Shown: in pieces, positions 2,884 through 13,226 of the stretch
Position numbering within the stretch: position 1 is the stretch's first letter
Layout of the letters: each line of letters starts with the position of its first letter
From: Candidatus Aenigmatarchaeota archaeon
GTDB taxonomy: Archaea; Aenigmatarchaeota; Aenigmatarchaeia; GW2011-AR5
DNA: 14,140 nt
Assembly (NCBI GenBank): GCA_043799385.1
Contig: JAZDNV010000020.1
Coordinates: 1-14,140, forward strand
Direction of reading: 5' to 3'
Made by a program: the position numbers and the translations under genes
Notes under the pieces: model-generated
Told to the model about the DNA's origin: nothing
Seen by the model: the letters and a program-made list of their open reading frames with translations, nothing else
Databases searched by the model: none

Positions 2884-4308
2884 ATGAACAACCGTCTCTT
2901 ATTTTCAATGCTTATTCTTGTCGTTTTTGCATCCGGTTGCATTCAGACGCAGCCGGTAAAGGTTGACGCGAACAACGGGATAAAGATAGAGACGTTCGCA
3001 GCTGACCCTGTCGATGTTTATGACAAGAGCACTGTATCATTCACAGCAGACATAGAGAATGTCGGCGGCAACACTGCTTACAATGTCGAGACAGAGCTAA
3101 CCGGAATGGATGTATGGGGGCCGGGATATAAGAAATTCTCTACTGTATCAAAGATGAGCCCGCCTAAACCAGACGAGAGCATACCAGGCGACATCAAAAC
3201 CTACATGTGGGAGATCGATGCGCCTGACCTGAGCGAAGGAGATTTTGTTTCATTTCCTGTGAAGGCGAGAGTGACTTATGATTACGAAACCGGCAATACG
3301 ATAGCAATCAAGGCGATTAGTTATGATAGGTACAGCATAATGCAGAAAAAAGGAGAGACAGTCGAGAATCCTGTAAGCATGCGTGACGATTTCAGCGGCC
3401 CGATAAAAATAAAGCTTGCCAAGGGCGCAACGCCGCTGATAATCGACCCGTCAGAGGCAGAAGGAAAAATCGAGCGAGTTTACAAGCTTGAAGTGCAGAA
3501 CGTAGGCGACGGTTGGCCAATAACTGACAATGTCGTCGGCCGCGTGACCGGCTCGATAGAATTATTTGGACCAGGAATAACGCTGAAAGAATGCACGGGA
3601 ATTACAGGAAGCATGAGCAACTTCTACGTGATACTGAGAAGCAACGGAATAGCGCCAATCGCATGCACGGTTGAAATCGACCCGATAAGATGGCAGACAA
3701 AAACAGAAGACGTTTTCCGCTTCAAGGCGAAATTCAGCTTCAGGTATTATGTTGAAAAAGAAGTTTCTGTTACCGTCCGCGGAACAGAGAAGATAAAGAG
3801 GATAAGCGCTCCGGCGCCAACGGATAGAAAGCAACCGATAACATACATAGTGTCGCCATCGGAAGGTTCGCTGTGGAATACTGATTTCTCGGTGAGCGTT
3901 TCGGATTATGATATGGATTCAGGGCTTGCAACGTGCGAATACATGGTCGTCAGCCGCGGCATCGAAACGACACAATGGGCAACAAGGCCGTGCTCTTCAT
4001 CGATAACGCTCACTGTCGGCTGCAACCAGAACTGCAGAGATCCAGGAAGCAACACAGTCTTATTATATGTGAGGTCAAGAGACCGCGCAGGAAACGTTGC
4101 AAGCGATTCGAGGAGCTTCAGCATTGACCGCAACTGCAACCAGTGCCCGACAGGTTGCGGAACAACGTGTCCTACAGGATGCGGAACGACATGCCCGACT
4201 GGCTGCGGTAGCAGTTGCCCGAGTGGTTGCGGTACGACATGTCCTAGTGGCTGCGGAACGAATTGTCCTACTGGCTGCGGTAGCTGTAATTACTGGACTG
4301 GTTGCTAA
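2884..4308 (+). CDS. Secreted/lipid-anchored Ig-like surface protein (paralog 3 of 3) with an extra Ig-like domain and Cys-rich repeat tail
   Basis: Lipobox FASG-C19, with a GGTGA SD overlapping the previous stop. The shared two-domain core is followed by PITYIVSPSEG...YVRSRDRAGN (bacterial Ig-like pattern) and then CPTGCGTT repeats. Confidence 0.78.
   Translation: MNNRLLFSMLILVVFASGCIQTQPVKVDANNGIKIETFAADPVDVYDKSTVSFTADIENVGGNTAYNVETELTGMDVWGPGYKKFSTVSKMSPPKPDESIPGDIKTYMWEIDAPDLSEGDFVSFPVKARVTYDYETGNTIAIKAISYDRYSIMQKKGETVENPVSMRDDFSGPIKIKLAKGATPLIIDPSEAEGKIERVYKLEVQNVGDGWPITDNVVGRVTGSIELFGPGITLKECTGITGSMSNFYVILRSNGIAPIACTVEIDPIRWQTKTEDVFRFKAKFSFRYYVEKEVSVTVRGTEKIKRISAPAPTDRKQPITYIVSPSEGSLWNTDFSVSVSDYDMDSGLATCEYMVVSRGIETTQWATRPCSSSITLTVGCNQNCRDPGSNTVLLYVRSRDRAGNVASDSRSFSIDRNCNQCPTGCGTTCPTGCGTTCPTGCGSSCPSGCGTTCPSGCGTNCPTGCGSCNYWTGC
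4144..4284 (+). repeat. In-frame 24-bp tandem repeat, about 6 copies, encoding CP[T/S]GCG[T/S][T/S/N]
   Basis: Units start at 4144, 4168, 4192, 4216, 4240 and 4264 (the last is 21 bp). Differences are mostly synonymous third-position changes. Confidence 0.95.
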
Positions 4309-5531
4309 AGAAATTTCTTCAGATTGAATTTATTCTCATCGTACGTTTTCTTTGGCATCTCGCTATCGATAATCTTACCGTAAACGCCGTCGTAGCCGGG
4401 CTCCACTCTGATTCCGCCAGAACGGTTCTTTACCACCATTTCAGCAACGCGCTCATTGACATCCTTCAGCCGCTCTTTTTCCACATTAAGAAGAATGTGG
4501 AACTCGTTGCCGAAACGGGCAATAAACTTGTCATAGACTTCGTTTGCTTTCTTCGAGAAGGCTTCGCCGCCGACAACGAATGCAATAAGCTCGCTCAGCG
4601 GCAATAACGATTTGAATTCATCGGGTTTTGATTCTTTTCTGTCCGCTAATTCTTCAACGCGGTTCAGCACGCCTATTATTAATTTCTTGCCGCACACAGG
4701 GCACATGCCATTCAATTTCTTCGTCTCTTCGGGTGCGCAGGAGAAATTGCAGTCGCGATGCCCGTCGTAATGATATTTTCCGTATGATGGGTCGACCTCT
4801 ATCGTAAATAAAAAATCGCGTCTCGTCTTTATCGAATCGACGAGATGCGAATAATCGACTTTCTTCAGGTCGAATACATTCGCCTCGCGGCCGAGCCGCC
4901 AAGGATAGGGCGAGTGCGAGTCGCTGTTCGATACGAGCGTAAAGCGGTCTAATCCGCTCAGCATACGATTCATTGGCGGGTCGCTGCTTAACCCAGTTTC
5001 GAGCGCGTAGATATTCTTCGTATGCTCTGCAAAGCATTCGTCAATCGAGTCGAAGCCGCTCATCGAGCCGAACAAAGAGAACCAGGGCGTCCATACGTGC
5101 GCAGGTATGACCATTATCTCTTTTGATATTGACATAAATGCATCCATCATTTCTATGCATGAAAAGCCAAAAATCGGACGGCCGTCATAATCAGTCCGCC
5201 CCTTCTTGAGCAGGAACTCGTTTATCTGATCGACTACTTCAAAAGTCGGTGCGAGAAGCACGTTATGAACGCGCCTGCCGACGCCGTCCTGCCGATAAAT
5301 CAGCGAGATTTCGCCAGACGGAACGAAGCGAACGCCCTCGTATTCATAAATGCCATCAACAAAAGCAAGTTTTTTCCTTATCTCTTTGAGCCACAAAGGA
5401 TGCGTGAAATCGCCAGTGCCTAGGATATTCAATCCTTTAATCTTCGCATACTTGGCGAGCTCTTCTATAATCATGTTCGGCGATGTCGCTCGCGAATATT
5501 TGCTGTGTATGTGCAGGTCTGCGAATTGCAT
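4305..5531 (-). CDS. Endonuclease Q-family protein (PHP domain + Zn ribbon)
   Basis: 408 aa with ADLHIHSKYSRATS, GTGDFTHP, GEIS, RVH, PAHVWTPW, ETGLSSD, SNSDSHS, RLGREAN, GKYHYDGHRDC...CPVCG, GVLNRVEELAD and PGYDGVYG. Its stop overlaps the convergent lipoprotein stop (CTAA 4305-4308). Confidence 0.88.
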   Translation of the reverse strand: MQFADLHIHSKYSRATSPNMIIEELAKYAKIKGLNILGTGDFTHPLWLKEIRKKLAFVDGIYEYEGVRFVPSGEISLIYRQDGVGRRVHNVLLAPTFEVVDQINEFLLKKGRTDYDGRPIFGFSCIEMMDAFMSISKEIMVIPAHVWTPWFSLFGSMSGFDSIDECFAEHTKNIYALETGLSSDPPMNRMLSGLDRFTLVSNSDSHSPYPWRLGREANVFDLKKVDYSHLVDSIKTRRDFLFTIEVDPSYGKYHYDGHRDCNFSCAPEETKKLNGMCPVCGKKLIIGVLNRVEELADRKESKPDEFKSLLPLSELIAFVVGGEAFSKKANEVYDKFIARFGNEFHILLNVEKERLKDVNERVAEMVVKNRSGGIRVEPGYDGVYGKIIDSEMPKKTYDENKFNLKKFL

Positions 5532-5581
5532 AATACCCGCTACTTTAAAAACTATAAAAAGTTTCTAAGCATTGCGATAGT
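5532..5581. promoter_or_regulatory. Compact bidirectional promoter between the endoQ-like and mtrA-like genes
   Basis: 50-bp spacer containing TTTAAAA and TATAAAAA (5553-5560). The latter lies about 22-29 nt from both start codons, consistent with leaderless archaeal transcripts. Confidence 0.5.
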
Positions 5582-6364
5582 ATGAACCTCGACGAATGGC
5601 CAATTGAGGCAGGACGATACAAAGTCGGTAACAAGCAATCCTGCATCGCTGTCTGCACGCTATCATCGCTGGATATAGAATTGCCGATGGATAATATAGC
5701 AATTGTAGGTAAGTGCGTCACCGAGAACGTCGGAATGGAGAAGATGATAAAGAACATAATATCTAACCCGCACATACGCTATCTCGTCATCTGCGGCCAG
5801 GAACCGAAGGGCCATTACGTCGGCCAGGCATTCAAGTGCCTAATAGAAAACGGTTTAGATAGCGGCAGACGTATAATCGGCGCAAAGGGCGCGATGCCAT
5901 TGATCAAGAACGTCAGTGATGAGCAGCTAGAGCATTTCAAGCGGCAGATCGAAATAATTGATGTCATTGAAGAAGAGGACAGGCAGAAAATAATGGACAA
6001 GATTAATTCTTTAGAAAAGTGCGATGCATTCGTTGAACGCGCAGACGCGAGCAACGTTGAAACACTAGTTGCTAACTACAATGCCGGACATGACGCGACT
6101 GCGGATAAAGGAATGGATGACTGCTTCTTTACAATACTCATCGACAGGGAAAAGCATTATATAATAGCGGAATACTACCTGAACCGCAAATTAGAAAAAA
6201 AGATAATCGGCAGAAACGCTGAAGAAATCATAGGCACTATAGCACGGCTTCGCCTAGTAAAGGGATTATATCATATGGGCTATCTCGGCAAGGAATTGAA
6301 GAAGGCAGAAATCGCCCTCCGTCTGGGCATCGACTACGAGCAGGACAAGGTGCTCGAATTCTAA
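5582..6364 (+). CDS. Soluble MtrA-like (corrinoid-binding) domain fused to a C-terminal DUF4346-like domain
   Basis: The N-terminus matches the MtrA pattern WP...G.Y.VGN..S.IAVCTL, TENVGMEK..KNIISNPHIRYL..CG.E..GHYVGQ (His78) and IIGAKGAMP. There is no C-terminal TM anchor. The C-terminus F.I.ID...HMGYLGKELKKAEIAL..GIDYEQD matches my recollection of DUF4346. Confidence 0.82.
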   Translation: MNLDEWPIEAGRYKVGNKQSCIAVCTLSSLDIELPMDNIAIVGKCVTENVGMEKMIKNIISNPHIRYLVICGQEPKGHYVGQAFKCLIENGLDSGRRIIGAKGAMPLIKNVSDEQLEHFKRQIEIIDVIEEEDRQKIMDKINSLEKCDAFVERADASNVETLVANYNAGHDATADKGMDDCFFTILIDREKHYIIAEYYLNRKLEKKIIGRNAEEIIGTIARLRLVKGLYHMGYLGKELKKAEIALRLGIDYEQDKVLEF

Positions 6365-6414
6365 CATTTAAAGGTTTCTTGTGAATTAAAATAAAAAAAC
6401 GAGAAAGTGATAAC

Positions 6415-7224
6415 ATGGAATTCTTGGCAGGCGCGGGCAATTACGGTCCAATAGTAATCAATGCAGAAACGCTCGGTGAAGCGTGGGAGCACGCGGTCAT
6501 AGCGATAATGACAGGCGGCGTCAAGAAATTCGTCGACGCGCCGGATTACAAGACGAATACCATAGAAAGCCAGATGTTTCTCTACATCAAAAACCCGTTC
6601 GCAGAGCCGCGCATTCATCCGTCTGTTGCGCTGCCGCTAGAGCAGGCACAGGAATACGCGAACAACGTTATTTACGGCATGCCAATCGAGAAGGAAAACA
6701 AGCATGATTATACTTATTTCTCGCGATTGCGACGCCATCGCGAGTGCCCAGTCATCGTCGACCTGCCGAATATCGTCGAAGGAGCAGAGCTGAAGAAGGC
6801 GGCGAATGAAATCTGCAACGGTCAGTGCAAGGTCGAACTTTTAGACCAGGTCCAGAAAGTAATCGACACGCTGAAAGACGACCCGTCAAGGCGCAGCTGC
6901 GTGATGCACACATGGTATCCACTGCGCGACCTAGAAAAGTTCGGCCCAAGAGCAAAAACGTCTTCGCCTTGCTTAGTCACGATGCAGCCGCAGATAATTG
7001 ATGGTCGCTTACATATGATCGCAACGATGAAAACTAATGACCTCTATTCCGCCTGGCCGCTAAACGCATTCGCATTCACCGAGCTGCAGAAGTATATTGC
7101 CAAAGAAGTGGGCGTAGAGACTGGCTCTTACACGCACTTCTCAGTATCGATGCAGATATACGAGGAGATGTTCGAGATGGCGCAAGAGCTCGTGGATAAT
7201 CCAATTTTAACAAAGGGTGAATAG
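6415..7224 (+). CDS. thyA: Thymidylate synthase (archaeal ThyA-like, atypical residues)
   Basis: Motifs TLGEAWE, YTYFSRLR, DQ..VI..LKDDPSRR, catalytic PC (6967-6972), KTND...PLN and GSYTHFSVSMQIY. Confidence 0.82.
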   Translation: MEFLAGAGNYGPIVINAETLGEAWEHAVIAIMTGGVKKFVDAPDYKTNTIESQMFLYIKNPFAEPRIHPSVALPLEQAQEYANNVIYGMPIEKENKHDYTYFSRLRRHRECPVIVDLPNIVEGAELKKAANEICNGQCKVELLDQVQKVIDTLKDDPSRRSCVMHTWYPLRDLEKFGPRAKTSSPCLVTMQPQIIDGRLHMIATMKTNDLYSAWPLNAFAFTELQKYIAKEVGVETGSYTHFSVSMQIYEEMFEMAQELVDNPILTKGE

Positions 7225-7491
7225 ATGCTGATAGATGAGTTGCTGATGTCTGTGGGTGCAATAATAATTGTTGTCTCATGGTTTCCTCAGATTATAAAAT
7301 TGTGGAAAACAAAAAGCTCAAGAGATATATCGATACCATTCCTTGTGACAATAATCGCCGGAACGATAATGGTCATACCCCATTCAATAATCATAAATGA
7401 CATATACTTCTCGCTGATGAACATATCTGCTACAACTGCAGCAATAGTAGCATTAATTTTAGCAATCAAATACAGGAAGGTGAAAAAATGA
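7225..7491 (+). CDS. SemiSWEET / PQ-loop family small membrane transporter
   Basis: 88 aa with three hydrophobic segments, FPQIIKLWKTKSSRDIS and Asn66. GGGTGA SD upstream; abuts the thyA stop and overlaps the dcd start (ATGA). Confidence 0.85.
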   Translation: MLIDELLMSVGAIIIVVSWFPQIIKLWKTKSSRDISIPFLVTIIAGTIMVIPHSIIINDIYFSLMNISATTAAIVALILAIKYRKVKK

Positions 7492-8048
7492 TACTCTCTG
7501 ACCGCGACATAAAGGAATACATAAAATCCGGCAGATTAGTAGTCGAGGGGCTAAAAGACGAGAACATACAAGCGGCGTGGGTAGATTTAACGTTAGGCAA
7601 AGAATTCCGCGTCTTCAAGACTACGGCAAAGCCGTACATAGACGTCAAGGATCCGAGCGACCACACGGAAAAGCTAACTGTCGACGGCGATTTCATAATG
7701 CATCCAGGCGAGTTCGTACTCGGCCAGGTAAATGAAAAGATAAAAATTCCAGACGACCTTGCTGCGTACGTCGATGGCCGTTCGTCGCTGGGAAGGCTTG
7801 GATTGGTCGTTCATGTCACTTCCGGTTTCGTTGACCCAGGATTTTCGGGAAGATTGGTGCTAGAAATGACAAACGTCGGTAAGATGCCTATTGCAATCCA
7901 TCCGGACATGCGCATCTGCAAGCTAGTCTTCTTCAAATTATCCAGCAAAGCAGAAAAACCGTATTTCATGCACAAGGAAGCGAAGTACAAGGAGCAGAAC
8001 AACGTCATCGGCAGCAAGATAAGCGATGAGTTCAACCGCTTCAGCTGA
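7488..8048 (+). CDS. dcd: dCTP deaminase (possibly bifunctional dUMP-forming)
   Basis: Motifs MILSDRDI, IQ.A.VDLTLG, PGEFVLG, GRSSLGRLG..VH.TSGFVDPGF.G.LVLE and KY..Q; AGGTGA SD upstream. Confidence 0.93.
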   Translation: MILSDRDIKEYIKSGRLVVEGLKDENIQAAWVDLTLGKEFRVFKTTAKPYIDVKDPSDHTEKLTVDGDFIMHPGEFVLGQVNEKIKIPDDLAAYVDGRSSLGRLGLVVHVTSGFVDPGFSGRLVLEMTNVGKMPIAIHPDMRICKLVFFKLSSKAEKPYFMHKEAKYKEQNNVIGSKISDEFNRFS

Positions 8049-9090: not shown

Positions 9091-9921
9091 ATGGCAGACC
9101 TAGGACTAGGCGACAGGGTAAAAATAGTTCAGATAATGGAAAACGGCAAAGAAACCGTTCCTAACACGTTTGTTGGAGAAGTCGGAATGCTGACCCAGGT
9201 TAATGGAAAATACGCAACTCTTGTAAAAGCAAACGGTACAACAACCGTAGCCCCATATAAGAGCCTTGTCATTGCCAGCAGGGAAGAGCAGGAATCATAC
9301 TTCAGCGGATTGAATGTAATGAAAGCATCGAAAGTCGAACCTCGTGAAACAAATAAATTAACAATCGAGCATCACGGCTTGAGAATTGTTGCAAAATATG
9401 GTGGCAAAGTCTATGAACCAGCCGGTTCTGGGTGCTACGGAAAGGACGAGATTGGCATCTACAAGTTCGACCTGCCAGAAAGGCTAAGAACCACGAATGG
9501 TATAAACCATCTCTGCCTTCTGTTCAACGGAGAAGATTACTATGCAGTAGGCCTGGCCAAGACTCCGAAAGATATTTTAGACCAAACATGGCGCGATGCA
9601 AAGGTAATAATGGGTTGGGAGAAGAATGATATTGGATTGGATGGCAATCTTGCTGAGATATTAAGAAAATTCCTGAAACAGGAGCAGCTAAAACCAGAGC
9701 TTTTGTCATCAGAGCTGTTCGGGTATACAGGAATCATAGAGCACAACGGCTTGATTAAAGCGTCTGATATGGAGGAGGCTGAACGCCTTAGAATAAGAAT
9801 CGAGATAGAAAGGGAATATATGAAGCGCATGGGCGTGGACGACCCGGGCAAACTAAACCACGAAGATTTCATCAAATACCGCGATGGTCTAGAAATACTC
9901 TTTGAAGAGAACGGCATCTAA
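9091..9921 (+). CDS. Hypothetical protein
   Basis: 276-aa ORF filling the gap, with protein-like composition. The N-terminal GDRVKI...VGEVG segment is SH3/KOW-like; no family recognised. Confidence 0.75.
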   Translation: MADLGLGDRVKIVQIMENGKETVPNTFVGEVGMLTQVNGKYATLVKANGTTTVAPYKSLVIASREEQESYFSGLNVMKASKVEPRETNKLTIEHHGLRIVAKYGGKVYEPAGSGCYGKDEIGIYKFDLPERLRTTNGINHLCLLFNGEDYYAVGLAKTPKDILDQTWRDAKVIMGWEKNDIGLDGNLAEILRKFLKQEQLKPELLSSELFGYTGIIEHNGLIKASDMEEAERLRIRIEIEREYMKRMGVDDPGKLNHEDFIKYRDGLEILFEENGI

Positions 9922-10312: not shown

Positions 10313-11002
10313 TTATTCTATCTTATTTTTCTTTTTGATGTTACACTTAGCACAGAGTATTCTAACATTCTTTTCAGTAATAGAACTTCCTCCTTTTGAA
10401 AATGGTATATCATGATCATAATGTAGATTTATTTTCGAACCGCAAATAACACATTTACCCTTATCACGTTTCCATACCTTAATTTTCACATCTGTAGGAA
10501 TTAACCTGCTATGCTCTGATTCTTCACGTTCAGAAATTATCTTTATGTCATCGTTTCTAGGTTTTAGTATAAATTTGAATACCTTTCTTCCGTCAGATTC
10601 CTCTATTCTATAGTCTATTAGATCAAAGAACCCTTTTTCAGACCAAATTCCTGAGTTTAACTTTTCAAAAACAATTACCTTTTCTGGATCTGCGGTCTTC
10701 TTTTTGTAATTTTCAACTGCTCTTACAAACTTTCCGTTTTCTGTTAAAGTTTTATTATCTGTAAATAAAGGCTGATCTAATGACTTAGGATTTTTGATAC
10801 CTGCCTTTTTTGGTACATCATGACCTTCGTAAATTAATAGATTATTTTTGAAATCGATTTGATCAGCATAAGGAGCGTTGGGTCTAACTGACATCAGTAT
10901 CACTGAAAGACCCTTAAGAATTCTAAAGTTCATACCACGCTGTATTGTATTGAGATTTAGCTTATTGCACATCTCTCGATAAGATATTATCTCATCTTTC
11001 AT
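10313..11002 (-). CDS. HNH endonuclease with N-terminal SRA-like (PUA-superfamily) domain; candidate modification-dependent restriction enzyme
   Basis: The C-terminus VWKRDKGKCVICG...HYDHDIPFSKGGS....NVRILCAKCN is a clear McrA-type HNH. The N-terminal QRGMNFR..VILMS...PYAD....LIYEGHD....DQ...NGK resembles SRA-like readers, which is less certain. Confidence 0.8.
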   Translation of the reverse strand: MKDEIISYREMCNKLNLNTIQRGMNFRILKGLSVILMSVRPNAPYADQIDFKNNLLIYEGHDVPKKAGIKNPKSLDQPLFTDNKTLTENGKFVRAVENYKKKTADPEKVIVFEKLNSGIWSEKGFFDLIDYRIEESDGRKVFKFILKPRNDDIKIISEREESEHSRLIPTDVKIKVWKRDKGKCVICGSKINLHYDHDIPFSKGGSSITEKNVRILCAKCNIKKKNKIE

Positions 11003-12870
11003 TGTGGTTCCTTATTTTTCCCAATTTTGCTCTCAAAATGTTTTCTTGTATCGTCATCCATGAAATAAACATAGACTCCTTTATGGGCTCTAGATAACAA
11101 GACTCTGTAAATATTTTTTAGATGAGAAACGAAGTTCTTGTTGTTCCTTTTGGCTTCATTATCATAGGAATTTTCTGGTTTAGCTTCCCAATCGTTCTTC
11201 TCCTTATTCCATCCTAAATCCTTGCAGAAAATGACCCCAATGTAATCGAATTCAAATCCCTGTGCAGTGTATACTGTTCCGACTTGTTCCATGCCACTGT
11301 CATCAGTAGCCCATTTCCAGAACTGGTCTTTCTTCTCCCAAGGCATTTCAAAATCTCCTATCTTCACATTTTTAACCAAAGAACCGTCAGAATTAGGGTT
11401 GCTCCAAGGCCAACAATAACTAGCAACTATTCTTGCGCAATTTTTCTTTTCTCTGTTCCTTTCATCTATTATTTTTTTGAGTTCACGGGGAGAATCGACT
11501 ATTTTAAACTCCATTTTGTTATCTTCTTCTATTTCGATTTCTTTTCCTTCGTCTTTTATTTTTAGAACACTCTCGATCCAATCAAGATATTTCGCAGACC
11601 CGCCACACCTAAACTGCGTTTTTAGTTCATCCATCTCATAAACTTCTGCACCAAATTTTGAGGCGGATTCTTTGATTAAGCTAACACTGCCTATTTCATT
11701 TGGTCTAACGACCTGTTTTTCATCTATAAAGAAAACAGACAATTTTGCGGCTTTTATCAACTCATCTATCTGTGGTTGGTCTGTTTTCATGCTTCTAGGC
11801 GTCCATCTACTTTCGCTTGTTTTTCTTATCCTATGCGCCTCGTCGCAAATAAGGACATCTATACCATTTTCTTCATGACTCATGAAACTATTGAAAAACT
11901 TGAATTGCTTTGATGACCTAACACCGAGTATCTTCCTTAGGGTGTTGGTGAATGCAGAAGAACCTGTAGCATGGACCACGTTCTTTCCGCTCCTTAACAG
12001 CTCACCCATGACTTCTAGAGCAATAACAGATTTTCCAGTTCCTGGACCTCCTTTGACAATTATCACTGATTTTTCCTTTGTTTTTGCAATCTTCTTTGCT
12101 TTGCTCATGATAGTATTATATGCCGTTTGCTGTTCCTCAATTAAATGGAATATCTGCTGACTATTAATCATATCGCCTGTATGGTCCAATAATTTTTTAG
12201 AAGGTCTTAATATACTGAGGTTAAATCTCTCTAATACCTCTGATCCTTTACCTTTACTTAATTTTTCTTTCAAGTAATTTCCTAAATTAACAACATCCTG
12301 TTTTGAGAAAAGCGGATATTCCTTAATATTTTTACTAAATTTGGGCAGATAGAGCACTTCATTAACTCCATTACTATAATTATGGCAATAAACGCAGGCA
12401 CTCAAAACGGCAGGCTTATCCTCATCGAATATAGTCATATAGTCCCTAAGATGCCAATAATAGCCTTCTACTTGTAAGGATGGGTGTGGGTCAATTTTTT
12501 TAAAACGACCATAATCAACTATTACGTTTCCTTCGTCTTCTGAATCTTTAACATTATTATTTGACCATTGCTTTAGTTCAACGATTATGATATTATCGGT
12601 GTCTTTCTTATCTCTTCCAAATAAGACAACGTCAATTCTACTATTTTTTGCGAATGGTAATTCGTATTCAATAATTATTTCATTTTCTAACAAGTTAGAC
12701 ATATCTAAAACGTCCTTCAGTTTTGGTAAAGAATTATTCCAGGATCTGACTTCTGATTCATTTGCATTTCTATTGTAATATTCTTCAAAATTTTTTGCTA
12801 TTACATCTGCAATCCTGTTATTAATTACGTCTTCTTTGAAATCTGCAACTGTCCCTTCGTATAATCTCAT
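10999..12870 (-). CDS. DUF2075 (Schlafen group-3-like) SF1 helicase/ATPase with N-terminal PD-(D/E)xK-like nuclease domain
   Basis: Walker A GGPGTGKS, Walker B ICDEAHR, FFIDEKQ, QFRC, VYTAQGFEFDYIGV and YRVLLSRA; N-terminal EYELP..RIDVVL...IIVELKQW. ATGA overlap with the HNH gene. Confidence 0.85.
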   Translation of the reverse strand: MRLYEGTVADFKEDVINNRIADVIAKNFEEYYNRNANESEVRSWNNSLPKLKDVLDMSNLLENEIIIEYELPFAKNSRIDVVLFGRDKKDTDNIIIVELKQWSNNNVKDSEDEGNVIVDYGRFKKIDPHPSLQVEGYYWHLRDYMTIFDEDKPAVLSACVYCHNYSNGVNEVLYLPKFSKNIKEYPLFSKQDVVNLGNYLKEKLSKGKGSEVLERFNLSILRPSKKLLDHTGDMINSQQIFHLIEEQQTAYNTIMSKAKKIAKTKEKSVIIVKGGPGTGKSVIALEVMGELLRSGKNVVHATGSSAFTNTLRKILGVRSSKQFKFFNSFMSHEENGIDVLICDEAHRIRKTSESRWTPRSMKTDQPQIDELIKAAKLSVFFIDEKQVVRPNEIGSVSLIKESASKFGAEVYEMDELKTQFRCGGSAKYLDWIESVLKIKDEGKEIEIEEDNKMEFKIVDSPRELKKIIDERNREKKNCARIVASYCWPWSNPNSDGSLVKNVKIGDFEMPWEKKDQFWKWATDDSGMEQVGTVYTAQGFEFDYIGVIFCKDLGWNKEKNDWEAKPENSYDNEAKRNNKNFVSHLKNIYRVLLSRAHKGVYVYFMDDDTRKHFESKIGKNKEPQ

Positions 12871-12872
12871 AA

Positions 12873-13226
12873 TTATAAGTCAACGTACTTTTTTGCAGTG
12901 CCCTTAGACTTGTTTACAGGGTACTTTATTTCATTTTTCTTCAGCTTCTTCTCTGAAGCTTCTATTAAATCTATTCCCATCTCATCAGATAATTCTAATA
13001 AATATATGAAAATATCTGCTAGTTCTTCTCCAATTTCTTCCTTTTTCTCTATTGCTGCTTTTCTAATCTCTTCTGGACTCTTCCACTGAAAATGTTCCAA
13101 AAGTTCGCTGGCCTCAAGGACTATAGAAATCGCCATATCCTTATGATTATGAAACTGCTTCCAGTCCCTTTCATCGCGGAATTTCTTTATTTTCTCCAGA
13201 AGGTCTTCTAACTCCTTGTTCGCCAT
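12873..13226 (-). CDS. MazG-like nucleotide pyrophosphohydrolase (DCTPP1/RS21-C6-like)
   Basis: Motifs FRDERDWKQFH..KD.A.S...EASELLEHFQW, EELADIFIYL and K...NE.KYPV..SKG..KKY. Ends 2 nt before the DUF2075 start. Confidence 0.9.
   Translation of the reverse strand: MANKELEDLLEKIKKFRDERDWKQFHNHKDMAISIVLEASELLEHFQWKSPEEIRKAAIEKKEEIGEELADIFIYLLELSDEMGIDLIEASEKKLKKNEIKYPVNKSKGTAKKYVDL

Follow-up and report, generated by a model that had tools for sequence, protein, structure and literature searches.

To our knowledge, de novo thymidylate synthesis is established for two routes only, ThyA together with DHFR, and ThyX, whose cofactor is flavin. Both enzymes take their carbon from methylene-folate, and the thymidylate synthases (TS) of the methanogen type are believed to use a methylene-pterin (tetrahydrofolate or a methanopterin-like cofactor). 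Many of the sampled DPANN archaea and CPR bacteria carry neither ThyA/DHFR nor ThyX nor SHMT, therefore the source of their thymine is an open point in metabolic reconstructions. The conserved pairing described below, between a soluble MtrA-like protein with a DUF4346 tail and a short TS-fold enzyme, occurs in such ultra-small archaea and bacteria and points to an undescribed thymidylate route. In open-licence PMC papers and bioRxiv no description of the pairing was found, and neither was literature on DUF4346, on DUF6580 or on AfhB in connection with thymidylate synthase.

The closest described systems for the corrinoid partner are MtrA of the Mtr complex (5LAA, 5L8X) and its cytoplasmic homologues. 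In the solved MtrA homologue cobalamin is contacted by Y18, T53, N55, G57, N64 and H84, and homologues in bacteria and non-methanogenic archaea are recorded without assigned function in the parts of that paper on which we draw (PMC4915002). The concept of an enzyme devoid of a folate domain that receives methyl from a corrinoid protein is represented by the core methionine synthases MesA/MesB; the core methionine synthase is predicted to take its methyl group from MtrA (PMC7857596).

The window, i.e., the whole stretch of 14,140 nucleotides that was analysed, belongs to a Candidatus Aenigmatarchaeota genome of 786 kb (G000, 91% complete). Its cluster of four co-oriented genes, together with the position of the His78 codon, had been proposed in an initial annotation and is confirmed by the ORF list, Pfam and the sequence (Table 1). 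The first two genes are separated by a 50-bp gap, the second and third abut, and the third and fourth overlap by 4 bp.

Table 1. Coordinates of the MtrA-DUF4346/TS cluster and its features in the window.
Feature	Position	Strand	Basis
Gene upstream of the cluster	4305..5531	opposite	
Divergent intergenic region, putative cluster promoter	5532..5581	+	AT-rich TATA-like boxes TTTAAAAA / TATAAAAA, ~20-35 bp 5' of ATG; sequence reading
Four co-oriented genes	5582..8048	+	
Soluble MtrA + PterinBD-DUF4346 protein (P0001, 260 aa)	5582..6364	+	Pfam MtrA 8.2e-51, DUF4346 2.7e-16
MtrA domain, cobalamin-binding type, Rossmann-like	5591..6037	+	profile score 173.7 bits
Codon CAT, His78, predicted lower axial cobalt ligand	5813..5815	+	alignment with 5LAA
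PterinBD-DUF4346 domain	6125..6346	+	62.8 bits
Short thymidylate-synthase-fold enzyme, candidate dUMP methylase (P0002, 269 aa)	6415..7224	+	Pfam Thymidylat_synt 5.1e-16
Codon of Cys186, counterpart of the ThyA catalytic nucleophile	6970..6972	+	alignment with solved thymidylate synthases
SemiSWEET/PQ-loop-like small membrane protein (88 aa)	7225..7491	+	Pfam PQ-loop 1.4e-08
dCTP deaminase (Dcd, 186 aa), deoxyuridine nucleotide supplier	7488..8048	+	Pfam DCD 2.2e-48; TIGR02274

The assignment of Dcd is clear (TIGR02274, dCTP_deam of NCBIfam, 204.7 bits with a cut-off of 92.8). The SemiSWEET-like protein passes the Pfam PQ-loop threshold (34.8 against 22) and stays under that of NF037968 (39.5 against 80); since a counterpart is present in only one of 80 related loci (L004), a place for it in the conserved module was considered and rejected, and the gene is regarded as a lineage-specific passenger. 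When the window and 11 CPR/DPANN loci were searched with Rfam, a single tRNA came up and no cobalamin riboswitch.

P0001 scores above the Pfam cut-offs for MtrA over residues 4-151 (172.5 bits against 25) and for PterinBD-DUF4346 over residues 182-255 (60.6 against 29.6), and under the cut-off of the MtrA equivalog TIGR01111 (158.4 against 249.15); 88 homologues were found, in DPANN and CPR. It aligns with the cobalamin-bound homologue 5LAA at an E-value of 1.8e-43, with His78 placed on the GH of 5LAA, and the six contacts named above have their counterparts in Y13, T47, N49, G51, N58 and H78. Each of these residues is kept in 33-34 of the 34 split-type members of the family (the His ligand in 33), which suggests that P0001 binds a cobamide; judged by sequence alone, the protein would correspond to the corrinoid carrier component of a corrinoid methyltransferase of the three-component type. 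Thus sequence, His ligand and described cobalamin contacts are common to P0001 and MtrA of the Mtr complex, and solubility is common to P0001 and the cytoplasmic homologues. In contrast to MtrA of the Mtr complex, P0001 has DUF4346 in place of the C-terminal membrane helix, is linked to a TS rather than to mtrB-H or an mtrEDCBAFGH operon, and occurs without methanogenesis. The absence of a membrane anchor, noticed already in the initial annotation, agrees with the DUF4346 tail and with the translation, in which no long hydrophobic stretch is visible. An AlphaFold model of DUF4346 (89-residue piece, pLDDT 92) comprises three strands (10-17, 22-29 and 32-39) and two helices (42-51 and 58-77) and had no match in the PDB at E <= 0.001 (Foldseek). 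In a wide VIA-align comparison the highest Z, 6.3, was to ribosome-associated proteins and lies in the range of common arrangements; no fold was assigned.

The second protein, P0002, is a reduced member of the TS fold. Its Pfam match is restricted to positions 104-223 of the 266 of the Thymidylat_synt profile, and its best full-length family match is the methanogen-type TS TIGR03283, the MJ0757 type (7.6e-39; 133.3 bits, under the curated cut-off of 174.55). The substrate-side residues are retained: the catalytic Cys, the phosphate-binding Arg pair, Asp169 and Asn177 of canonical ThyA (EC 2.1.1.45; E. coli numbering, as for Arg166 and Arg21 below) correspond to C186, R159/R160, D209 and N217, which, together with K206, T207 and Y101, are invariant in all 33 P0002-type sequences. 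The counterpart of Arg166 is Lys206, and that of Arg21 is absent. When P0002 was aligned with a canonical ThyA from its own phylum, no counterpart of the folate-binding Trp loop or of the C-terminal lid was seen; the protein stops about 20 residues past the IYE motif. With the methanogen-type enzymes P0002 shares a TS fold of about 200-270 residues that is free of the long folate-binding elements; it differs from them in the Lys at the Arg166 position, in the constant company of MtrA-DUF4346 and in an insert of about 35 residues with invariant Cys111 and Cys138, present in 33/33 split-type TS. The best PDB sequence match of P0002 is the CMP hydroxymethylase MilA (4.7e-09), and the best structural match of the TS domain by target TM-score is phage AfhB, by its PDB titles a flavin-dependent dCMP hydroxylase (PDB 9iqu, also 9iqc; TMt 0.79, rmsd 3.0 A over 220 columns). 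AfhB is likewise a stripped TS fold, and its cofactor is not a folate but flavin; it acts on dCMP, whereas the P0002 family keeps the uracil-type Asn and is partnered by something other than a flavin domain.

How constant is the company of these two proteins? Of 44 DPANN/CPR loci with MtrA-DUF4346, 34 have a ThyA-like gene in the flanking sequence that was retrieved; Dcd adjoins the module in 29 of these 34, and in three loci (L038-L040) Dcd is fused to MtrA-DUF4346. Across the phylum, 47 of the 50 genomes that carry the module have both genes on one contig at most 2.3 kb apart, or in one ORF. Four proteins (P0090, P0095, P0097 and P0098) are end-to-end MtrA-DUF4346-TS fusions that keep the His motif, the TEN motif and the catalytic Cys, and P0090 has the two-Cys insert as well. 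A second order, MtrA-like-TS-DUF4346, is found in 31 ORFs, in which DUF4346 follows the TS, at the position of the canonical lid. The His is kept in none of the 31 (Ser in 27, Thr in 2, Asn in 2) and the Asn of the TEN motif is mostly lost; therefore a His-on cobamide is probably dispensed with in much of the family, and these sequences warn against generalising the corrinoid role. The two-Cys insert is missing in most of them. In nine CPR loci thymidylate kinase follows the TS. When 627 ORFs around the module in 80 loci were clustered, no further widely conserved neighbour emerged; the next clusters are housekeeping genes in at most 16 loci each. Co-folding of P0001 with P0002 (alignments A1 and A2) gave a score of 0.00, with the mark at 0.32, and was counted for neither side. 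The linkage, recovered in archaea and bacteria and as two kinds of fusion, is not due to chance, and it is well supported that the proteins work together.

The phylum survey comprised 151 genomes, 50 with and 101 without the module; absences in it depend on a genome completeness of about 85-98%, and relatives among the genomes do not count as independent samples. ThyX and canonical ThyA are both missing from 36 of the 50 module genomes, and 13 of the 50 also carry ThyX; among the other 101, ThyX is present in 77 and canonical ThyA in 9. Canonical ThyA genes of the phylum adjoin DHFR in ten cases out of ten and ThyX usually adjoins SHMT, whereas the module is mostly found in genomes without SHMT: the 36 module-only genomes contain SHMT in two cases, FolD in one and strong DHFR in none. 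By this phyletic pattern the module stands in for ThyX or ThyA-DHFR. Like ThyX it would be DHFR-independent, and its distribution is complementary to that of ThyX, but the two folds are unrelated. In the genome studied here ThyX, DHFR, SHMT, FolD and thymidine kinase were not found, which leaves the module as the sole thymidylate-synthase candidate in this genome, as in many others. Pfam searches of the window showed no other mtr subunit, DHFR or glyA, and the statement of the initial annotation to this effect extends to the whole 786-kb genome, where a single MtrA match and no MtrH were found and a complete mtr operon that might account for P0001 is missing. The proposal that an orphan MtrA is a partner of ThyA in a dTMP route apart from ThyA/DHFR and ThyX is therefore strongly supported by adjacency, fusions and phyletic pattern; this support does not extend to the chemical role given to the protein.

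What could a corrinoid protein contribute to a TS? The model that we favour, with a probability which we put a little short of even, is a cobamide-assisted dTMP synthase independent of DHFR and SHMT, in which the cobamide on MtrA would be the methyl carrier to dUMP. Dcd would convert dCTP to a deoxyuridine nucleotide, the short TS-fold enzyme would activate dUMP via Cys186, and the soluble MtrA-DUF4346 with its His-on cobamide would replace the folate cycle as the TS partner. The cobamide would hold the methyl group as methyl-Co(III), to be accepted directly by the C5 carbanion of the Cys-dUMP adduct with formation of Co(I), while DUF4346 would dock the carrier onto the TS at the site of the folate lid in canonical enzymes. 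Co(I) would then be re-methylated by a donor encoded outside the module, S-adenosylmethionine being a guess; the MetK of this genome is of the bacterial type, and an archaeal-type MetK was not found there. The methyl-carrier chemistry, the part played by DUF4346 and the C1 donor are all what we infer. As precedents we count the methyl transfer from MtrA predicted for core methionine synthase and a Thermoplasmata operon described below. In favour of a cobamide are the retained cobalamin contacts and, in this genome, the B12-dependent NrdJ and six ORFs with B12-binding domains. A possible link to B12 is also offered by eight CPR loci in which a DUF4430/DUF6580 pair lies directly 5' of the module: in the PDB the DUF6580 profile matches only one chain, from the B12 transporter ECF-CbrT (6FNP, E 0.0028), and the best match of the DUF4430 profile is intrinsic factor (E 0.03), both marginal. 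Neither domain was found in the present genome; the DUF6580 search was blank in control genomes as well, so its result says little. No loader methyltransferase was found in the genome (searched for MtrH and Pterin_bind), and no reductive activator accompanies the module in the 80 loci. Against the methyl carrier we counted the 31 His-less fusions, the occurrence of DUF4346 on DHPS-like enzymes and in genome G039 (both described below), the SHMT of CPR genomes and the ThyX of 13 module genomes.

Several of these points could speak for a pterin-dependent short TS, supplied with a scavenged methylene-pterin of the tetrahydrofolate or methanopterin-like kind, where DUF4346 would be lid and pterin holder and the MtrA cobamide an accessory for recharging, recycling or regulation rather than the direct donor. 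Methanogens, Archaeoglobi, Bathyarchaeia and Altiarchaeales have DUF4346 joined to pterin-binding proteins of the DHPS-like kind, and the domain also occurs with MtrH; its presence on DHPS-like and ThyA-like proteins, as stated in the initial annotation, is confirmed. In genome G039, which has no MtrA, DUF4346 stands by itself next to canonical thyA and folA, an arrangement that suggests a tie of the domain to pterin or to TS and not to a corrinoid. The fused relatives that have lost the His have a TS close to the methanogen type (L086, 171.3 bits, just under the TIGR03283 cut-off) and place DUF4346 where the lid would be; SHMT is present in 9 of 15 CPR module genomes, 8 of 10 among the fused type, and adjoins the fusion gene in G240. 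Nevertheless, the near absence of SHMT and FolD and the lack of strong DHFR in the module-only DPANN genomes (34, 35 and 36 of 36) speak against this explanation, as does Pterin_bind, found in 3 of the 151 genomes and not in this one. It also leaves unexplained why the cobalamin contacts of the split form are all strongly conserved and why candidate B12-uptake genes join CPR operons, and we consider it unlikely. To serve as a reductant is another conceivable task of the cobamide: with a C1 donor at the formaldehyde (methylene) level, cob(I)amide on MtrA, perhaps together with Cys111/Cys138, would give the two electrons that turn an exocyclic methylene intermediate into methyl, the role of flavin in ThyX, so that dihydrofolate would not arise and DHFR would be dispensable. 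The DHFR pattern and the distribution of the two-Cys insert (present in all split-type TS and P0090, absent from most His-less fusions) fit this scheme, and AfhB illustrates that TS folds can use other redox cofactors. However, a methylene source is not evident without SHMT or FolD, no cobamide reductase is encoded nearby and no precedent is known to us for such chemistry; we hold the scheme to be improbable.

Two further readings would detach the module from thymidylate altogether or dissolve it. The product might be another C5-modified pyrimidine nucleotide, e.g., hydroxymethyl or hydroxy, or the role one of salvage or repair, with thymidylate drawn from the host; the resemblance of the TS domain to the non-TS fold members MilA (in sequence) and AfhB (in structure), the 13 module genomes with ThyX and the tiny genomes of these probable symbionts could be understood in this way. 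It is nonetheless very improbable, given the invariant uracil-type N217, the link to Dcd and in CPR also to thymidylate kinase, the phyletic complementarity to ThyX/ThyA and the lack of thymidine kinase in this genome. As for the idea that MtrA-DUF4346 just happens to adjoin thyA and serves some other corrinoid function, members away from any TS do exist (L003, L024, L028, L034, L035 and all 8 Verrucomicrobia loci) and 3 of the 50 module genomes have MtrA-DUF4346 and the TS gene on separate contigs; yet adjacency is kept across two domains of life and fusion has occurred independently in two orders, by which this idea is close to refuted and hardly credible. Going back to the methyl carrier, its chemistry may belong to a further mechanistic class, in which a TS-fold enzyme methylates dUMP from an MtrA-type methyl-cobamide and a non-folate donor, S-adenosylmethionine or a different one, restores the methyl group, with no folate cycle. 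MtrA with DUF4346 would then be a general cytoplasmic methyl-delivery device that also feeds the core methionine synthase of Thermoplasmata, where an operon of the order MtrA - MtrH - core-MetE - DUF4346 has both elements in common with the module. The acceptor here would be the carbon of dUMP and not a thiol, and an MtrH-like loader is missing, in contrast to that system; we regard this extension as rather doubtful.

A TS partnered by a B12 protein, if true, would answer the question of thymine in DPANN and CPR and give a function to the orphan cytoplasmic MtrA homologues and to DUF4346. Since NrdJ and the module would both need B12, the B12 dependence of ultra-small symbionts would be tied to DNA synthesis. 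Should the methyl-carrier chemistry hold, a textbook enzyme family, and a major drug target at that, would gain a new reaction type. As the proteins are small and soluble, with single-chain versions in nature, the question lends itself directly to testing. The single-chain form has a parallel in the protozoan bifunctional DHFR-TS, in which a cofactor-handling alpha/beta domain is likewise fused N-terminal to TS. Among the Foldseek matches of the fusion model (pLDDT 90.4, pTM 0.61), DHFR-TS proteins had the best E-values, at TM 0.33-0.38 and with an rmsd exceeding 18 A; it is the TS part that matches, and the N-terminal domain of the fusion is MtrA-like, not DHFR.

The four-gene cluster on the + strand (5582-8048) proposed in the initial annotation was borne out by ORF calls and by Pfam and NCBIfam matches: an MtrA-DUF4346 protein (P0001, 260 aa) is followed by a short ThyA-like (TS) enzyme (P0002, 269 aa), a small transporter-like protein and the dCTP deaminase Dcd. 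The first two genes are 50 bp apart, the second and third abut, and the third and fourth overlap by 4 bp. The gene on the 5' side of MtrA-DUF4346 lies on the opposite strand, and the first ATG of the cluster is preceded by TATA-like boxes rich in A and T. The window is contig C17 of a 786-kb genome (31 contigs, estimated completeness 91%) and carries a CDP-archaeol synthase gene (Pfam), which identifies the source as an archaeon of very small genome. A tree of MtrA-DUF4346 proteins groups the window copy with uncultured archaea, within a supported set (97/94) containing Aenigmatarchaeota-labelled rows. The MtrA-DUF4346 proteins of a Pacearchaeota-labelled (L010) and a Woesearchaeota-labelled (L013) locus fall inside an otherwise bacterial CPR clade (100/98), which could reflect either mis-binning or gene transfer from one ultra-small group to the other.

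Features of the window and of homologous loci, with coordinates
Feature	Coordinates	Strand	Basis or context
Gene 1, MtrA (8.2e-51) + PterinBD-DUF4346 (2.7e-16)	5582-6364	+	Pfam
His78 codon, CAT	5813-5815	+	window sequence
Gene 2, Thymidylat_synt (5.1e-16), profile positions 104-223 only	6415-7224	+	Pfam
Two-Cys insert of P0002 (residues about 110-139)	6742-6831	+	
Gene 3, PQ-loop/SemiSWEET-like protein	7225-7491	+	Pfam
Gene 4, dCTP deaminase, 204.7 bits (cut-off 92.8)	7488-8048	+	NCBIfam
Low-GC region, three genes	10313-13226	-	
ORFs of 310, 259, 474 and 276 aa	1163-4308 and 9091-9921		
DUF4430 + DUF6580 pair	about 4100-5430 in each of L012, L019, L021, L025, L029, L038-L040		directly upstream of Dcd
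MtrA - MtrH - core-MetE-type methionine synthase - stand-alone DUF4346	L056 4529-7365; L065 5200-7356		Thermoplasmata
Stand-alone DUF4346 beside thyA-folA	L096 4497-6237		genome G039
Tandem two-domain ThyX ORF (example)	G015:C4:136391-139176		

The pairing of the first two genes is conserved. With one genome taken per species, a pattern scan gave 414 stretches that encode relatives; the best 80 of these were retained, and 44 of the 80 loci belong to DPANN archaea and CPR (L003-L040, L042, L044, L051-L054). Among the best 80 of 414, a ThyA-like gene was present within the fetched flank, mostly directly downstream of MtrA-DUF4346, in 34 of the 44 DPANN/CPR loci, and Dcd also in 29 of these 34, on the downstream side in archaea and on the upstream side in CPR. 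The ten loci of this best-80 set without a ThyA-like gene include short or truncated contigs (L007, L051, L053); real exceptions, with no neighbouring TS, are L003, L024, L028, L034 and L035. In a sample of 151 genomes of the window's phylum DUF4346 was found in 54, a TS-family match in 66 and MtrA in 45. A divergent TS-like gene occurs in 56 genomes, 50 of which also have DUF4346, and in 47 of the 50 the two matches share a frame or lie no more than 2.3 kb apart on the same contig (they are on separate contigs in G134, G038 and G115). The comparison shows that MtrA-DUF4346 and the short TS work as partners and, together with Dcd, constitute the thymidylate unit of the window's genome.

The module takes the place that ThyX or ThyA-DHFR occupy in other genomes. 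ThyX was detected in 90 of the 151 phylum genomes and canonical ThyA of high score in 10; the same 10, and no others, have a strong DHFR (163-218 bits), adjoining thyA in each. The module (DUF4346 with a divergent TS-like gene) is present in 50 genomes; ThyX accompanies it in 13 and canonical ThyA in one, and it is the sole TS candidate in 36. The 101 module-less genomes contain ThyX (77), canonical ThyA (9) or neither (15). SHMT was found in two of the 36 module-only genomes, FolD in one and strong DHFR in none, absences that rest on genomes 85-98% complete and, for reductases, on searches for orthologous enzymes only. SHMT is encoded in 65 of the 90 ThyX genomes, often adjoining thyX, and Pterin_bind in 3 of the 151. 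Searches of the window's genome (91% complete) revealed no ThyX, DHFR, SHMT, FolD, Pterin_bind, MtrH or thymidine kinase; it does encode a SAM synthetase of the bacterial type, a ribonucleotide reductase that depends on adenosylcobalamin (745.6 bits) and B12-binding domains in six ORFs. The comparison thus places the thymidylate unit where folate cycle enzymes are not found, and Fisher values for this pattern overstate its significance, because related genomes are not independent. The ThyX matches of the phylum are for the most part ORFs of 400-590 aa with two domains in tandem, and many adjoin SHMT.

The CPR sample was the class (121 genomes) of a complete CPR genome with the split module. 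DUF4346 occurs in 11 of the 121, ten times within frames of 467-564 aa. Among 15 module-bearing CPR genomes ThyX was found in one, DHFR above cut-off in one and SHMT in nine (1/5 split-type, 8/10 fused-type; in G240 directly downstream of the fusion gene). Since DHFR is nearly absent from both archaeal and CPR module genomes, independence of DHFR extends to both domains of life; the SHMT counts limit independence of SHMT to the split type and the archaeal genomes, without fused-type CPR.

The MtrA domain of P0001 matches 5LAA, the solved cobalamin-bound cytoplasmic MtrA homologue, at E 1.8e-43 and, judged by its sequence, is a close relative of real MtrA. The 5LAA report names Tyr18, Thr53, Asn55, Gly57 and Asn64 as cobalamin contacts and His84 as the ligand, and assigns no function to MtrA homologues of bacteria and non-methanogenic archaea (PMC4915002). 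The aligned counterparts in P0001 are Y13, T47, N49, G51, N58 and H78, the last being the histidine already read in the initial annotation, and they are kept in 33-34 of 34 aligned family members. From this conservation we infer that P0001 binds a cobamide His-on; the cobamide would also take part in the chemistry. The predicted structure of DUF4346 (pLDDT 92) consists of three strands and two helices, and fold searches against solved structures gave no convincing relative.

P0002 retains the catalytic C186, the Arg pair R159/R160, D209, the uracil-type N217, Y101 and Y249, all invariant or nearly so across 33 sequences. In the numbering of the canonical enzyme, it has Lys at the Arg166 position and no counterpart of Arg21. 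The alignment shows no counterpart of the Trp-containing folate loop, and the C-terminal folate lid is absent, because the chain stops about 20 residues past the IYE motif. An insert of about 35 residues carries C111 and C138, a pair invariant in 33/33 split-type TS; P0090, a fusion that keeps the His, has this insert too, and most His-less fusions lack it. Against the methanogen-type TS model P0002 scores 133.3 bits, under the cut-off of 174.55, and the split-type TS form a compact family, with 16 representatives (50% clustering) at E <= 1e-30 among 1.84 billion proteins.

Fusions occur in two orders. The His and TEN motifs and the catalytic Cys are all retained in the end-to-end MtrA-DUF4346-TS fusions (P0090, P0095, P0097, P0098). 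In the other order the MtrA-like domain comes first, then the TS, then DUF4346 (ORFs of 457-610 aa; inserted type); 31 such ORFs were gathered, 28 archaeal and 3 from CPR, and a Pfam scan of ten recovered all three domains in 10/10, with MtrA under its cut-off in three. The cobalt-ligating His is replaced in 31/31 inserted-type fusions (Ser 27, Thr 2, Asn 2), and the Asn55 counterpart is mostly gone, with Gly57 and partly Thr53 and Asn64 retained; their TS domain mostly lacks the two-Cys insert and, at 171.3 bits, comes near the methanogen-type cut-off (174.55). Sequence features therefore distinguish a His-keeping Cys-pair split type, to which the window belongs, from a His-less inserted type, which may use its MtrA-like domain differently, or as a scaffold only. 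Other fusion partners of MtrA-DUF4346 are Dcd, in CPR loci L038-L040 (505-534 aa), and a NUDIX domain (P0022). Long frames of 546-606 aa in G013, G097, G138 and G027 (contig C10), with MtrA matches of 119-125 bits and no DUF4346, are another architecture; in G013 a weak TS-like match shares the frame with the strong MtrA match.

The gene context touches on cofactor supply. Eight CPR loci among the best 80 of 414 share the order NusG - L11 - DUF4430 - DUF6580 - Dcd - MtrA-DUF4346 - TS, and thymidylate kinase comes next after TS in nine loci of the best 80 of 414. The lone PDB match of the DUF6580 profile, full-length and marginal (E 0.0028), is a 182-residue membrane chain of 6FNP, described as the vitamin B12 transporter ECF-CbrT (PMC5997447); the chain length suggests that this is CbrT itself. 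DUF4430 matches gastric intrinsic factor best, again marginally (E 0.03), and as the two marginal matches agree in direction, the pair is a candidate for cobalamin uptake.

DUF4346 has further settings. The Thermoplasmata operon in L056 and L065 fits the prediction of Price et al. that methyl for the core methionine synthase MesA comes from MtrA (PMC7857596), and links DUF4346 with this methyl relay. A protein of the TIGR00284 type, DUF6513 + Pterin_bind, ends in DUF4346 in methanogens, Archaeoglobi, Bathyarchaeia and Altiarchaeales. A canonical thyA-folA pair in G039 has a stand-alone DUF4346 of 119 aa as its divergent neighbour, and an MtrA search of that genome found none. On account of these settings DUF4346 accompanies C1 enzymes of both pterin and corrinoid kinds.

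The orphan MtrA was initially proposed as a C1/methyl carrier or cofactor-recycling partner of ThyA. Our leading reading, tentative and plausible rather than probable, is that dUMP bound to the catalytic Cys would take a methyl group, through its C5 carbanion, directly from methyl-cobamide, with DUF4346 as a docking or lid element; the cobamide would probably be recharged from SAM. Precedents for such chemistry exist in methionine synthase, in the polar C-methylation that TsrM carries out with cobalamin, and in the m5U/m5C methyltransferases of nucleic acids, where C5 attacks SAM. That the TS depends on a pterin and has helpers seems rather unlikely: the pterin company of DUF4346 and the SHMT of fused-type CPR speak for it, the scarcity of SHMT, FolD and strong DHFR in the module-only genomes and the conserved cobalamin contacts of the split type against it. 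The His loss in inserted-type fusions speaks against a universal corrinoid role.

That the cobamide serves as a reductant is improbable; the two-Cys insert and the absence of strong DHFR from the module-only genomes speak for it, the scarcity of SHMT and FolD there against it. The fusion structure model (pLDDT 90.4 per residue; domain packing less confident, pTM 0.61) has a TS part resembling solved TS-fold enzymes, with the highest target TM-score for AfhB (9iqu; TMt 0.79, rmsd 3.0 A); as a flavin-dependent dCMP hydroxylase, AfhB shows that a stripped TS fold can operate with a cofactor other than folate. A module yielding another product, as AfhB does, is more doubtful still, given the 36 genomes with no other TS candidate. 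Least credible is the absence of any functional link between MtrA-DUF4346 and TS, for which the few unpaired loci might speak, against the recurrent adjacency and fusion. Searches of open-licence PMC papers and bioRxiv found no paper on the MtrA-DUF4346/TS family or on DUF4346. The novelty seen here is the obligatory partner of a TS-fold enzyme; if the methyl-carrier chemistry is true, the module would be a categorically new route to thymidylate.

In eight Verrucomicrobia loci (L041, L043, L045-L050) among the best 80 of 414, a longer form of 383-417 aa joins a Cys-rich N-terminal extension to MtrA and DUF4346; no TS was found near it. Its gene is in every case preceded by that of an ArsR-type regulator and followed by two small family-less ORFs, with a MerR/MerT or cation-efflux gene close by in some loci; this longer form may be a corrinoid protein that acts in the metabolism of metals or metalloids.

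Elsewhere in the window, four ORFs match no significant Pfam or NCBIfam family, with weak CARDB/DUF7507 hints for the 259-aa one only. The low-GC region (0.32-0.38, about 0.45 elsewhere) is probably an acquired defence island, encoding a MazG-like protein, an HNH endonuclease with a weakly SAD/SRA-like N-terminal part, and a 623-aa NERD + Schlafen-group-3 helicase (PADLOC PDC-S41 1.6e-21; Nhi and AbiO-like).
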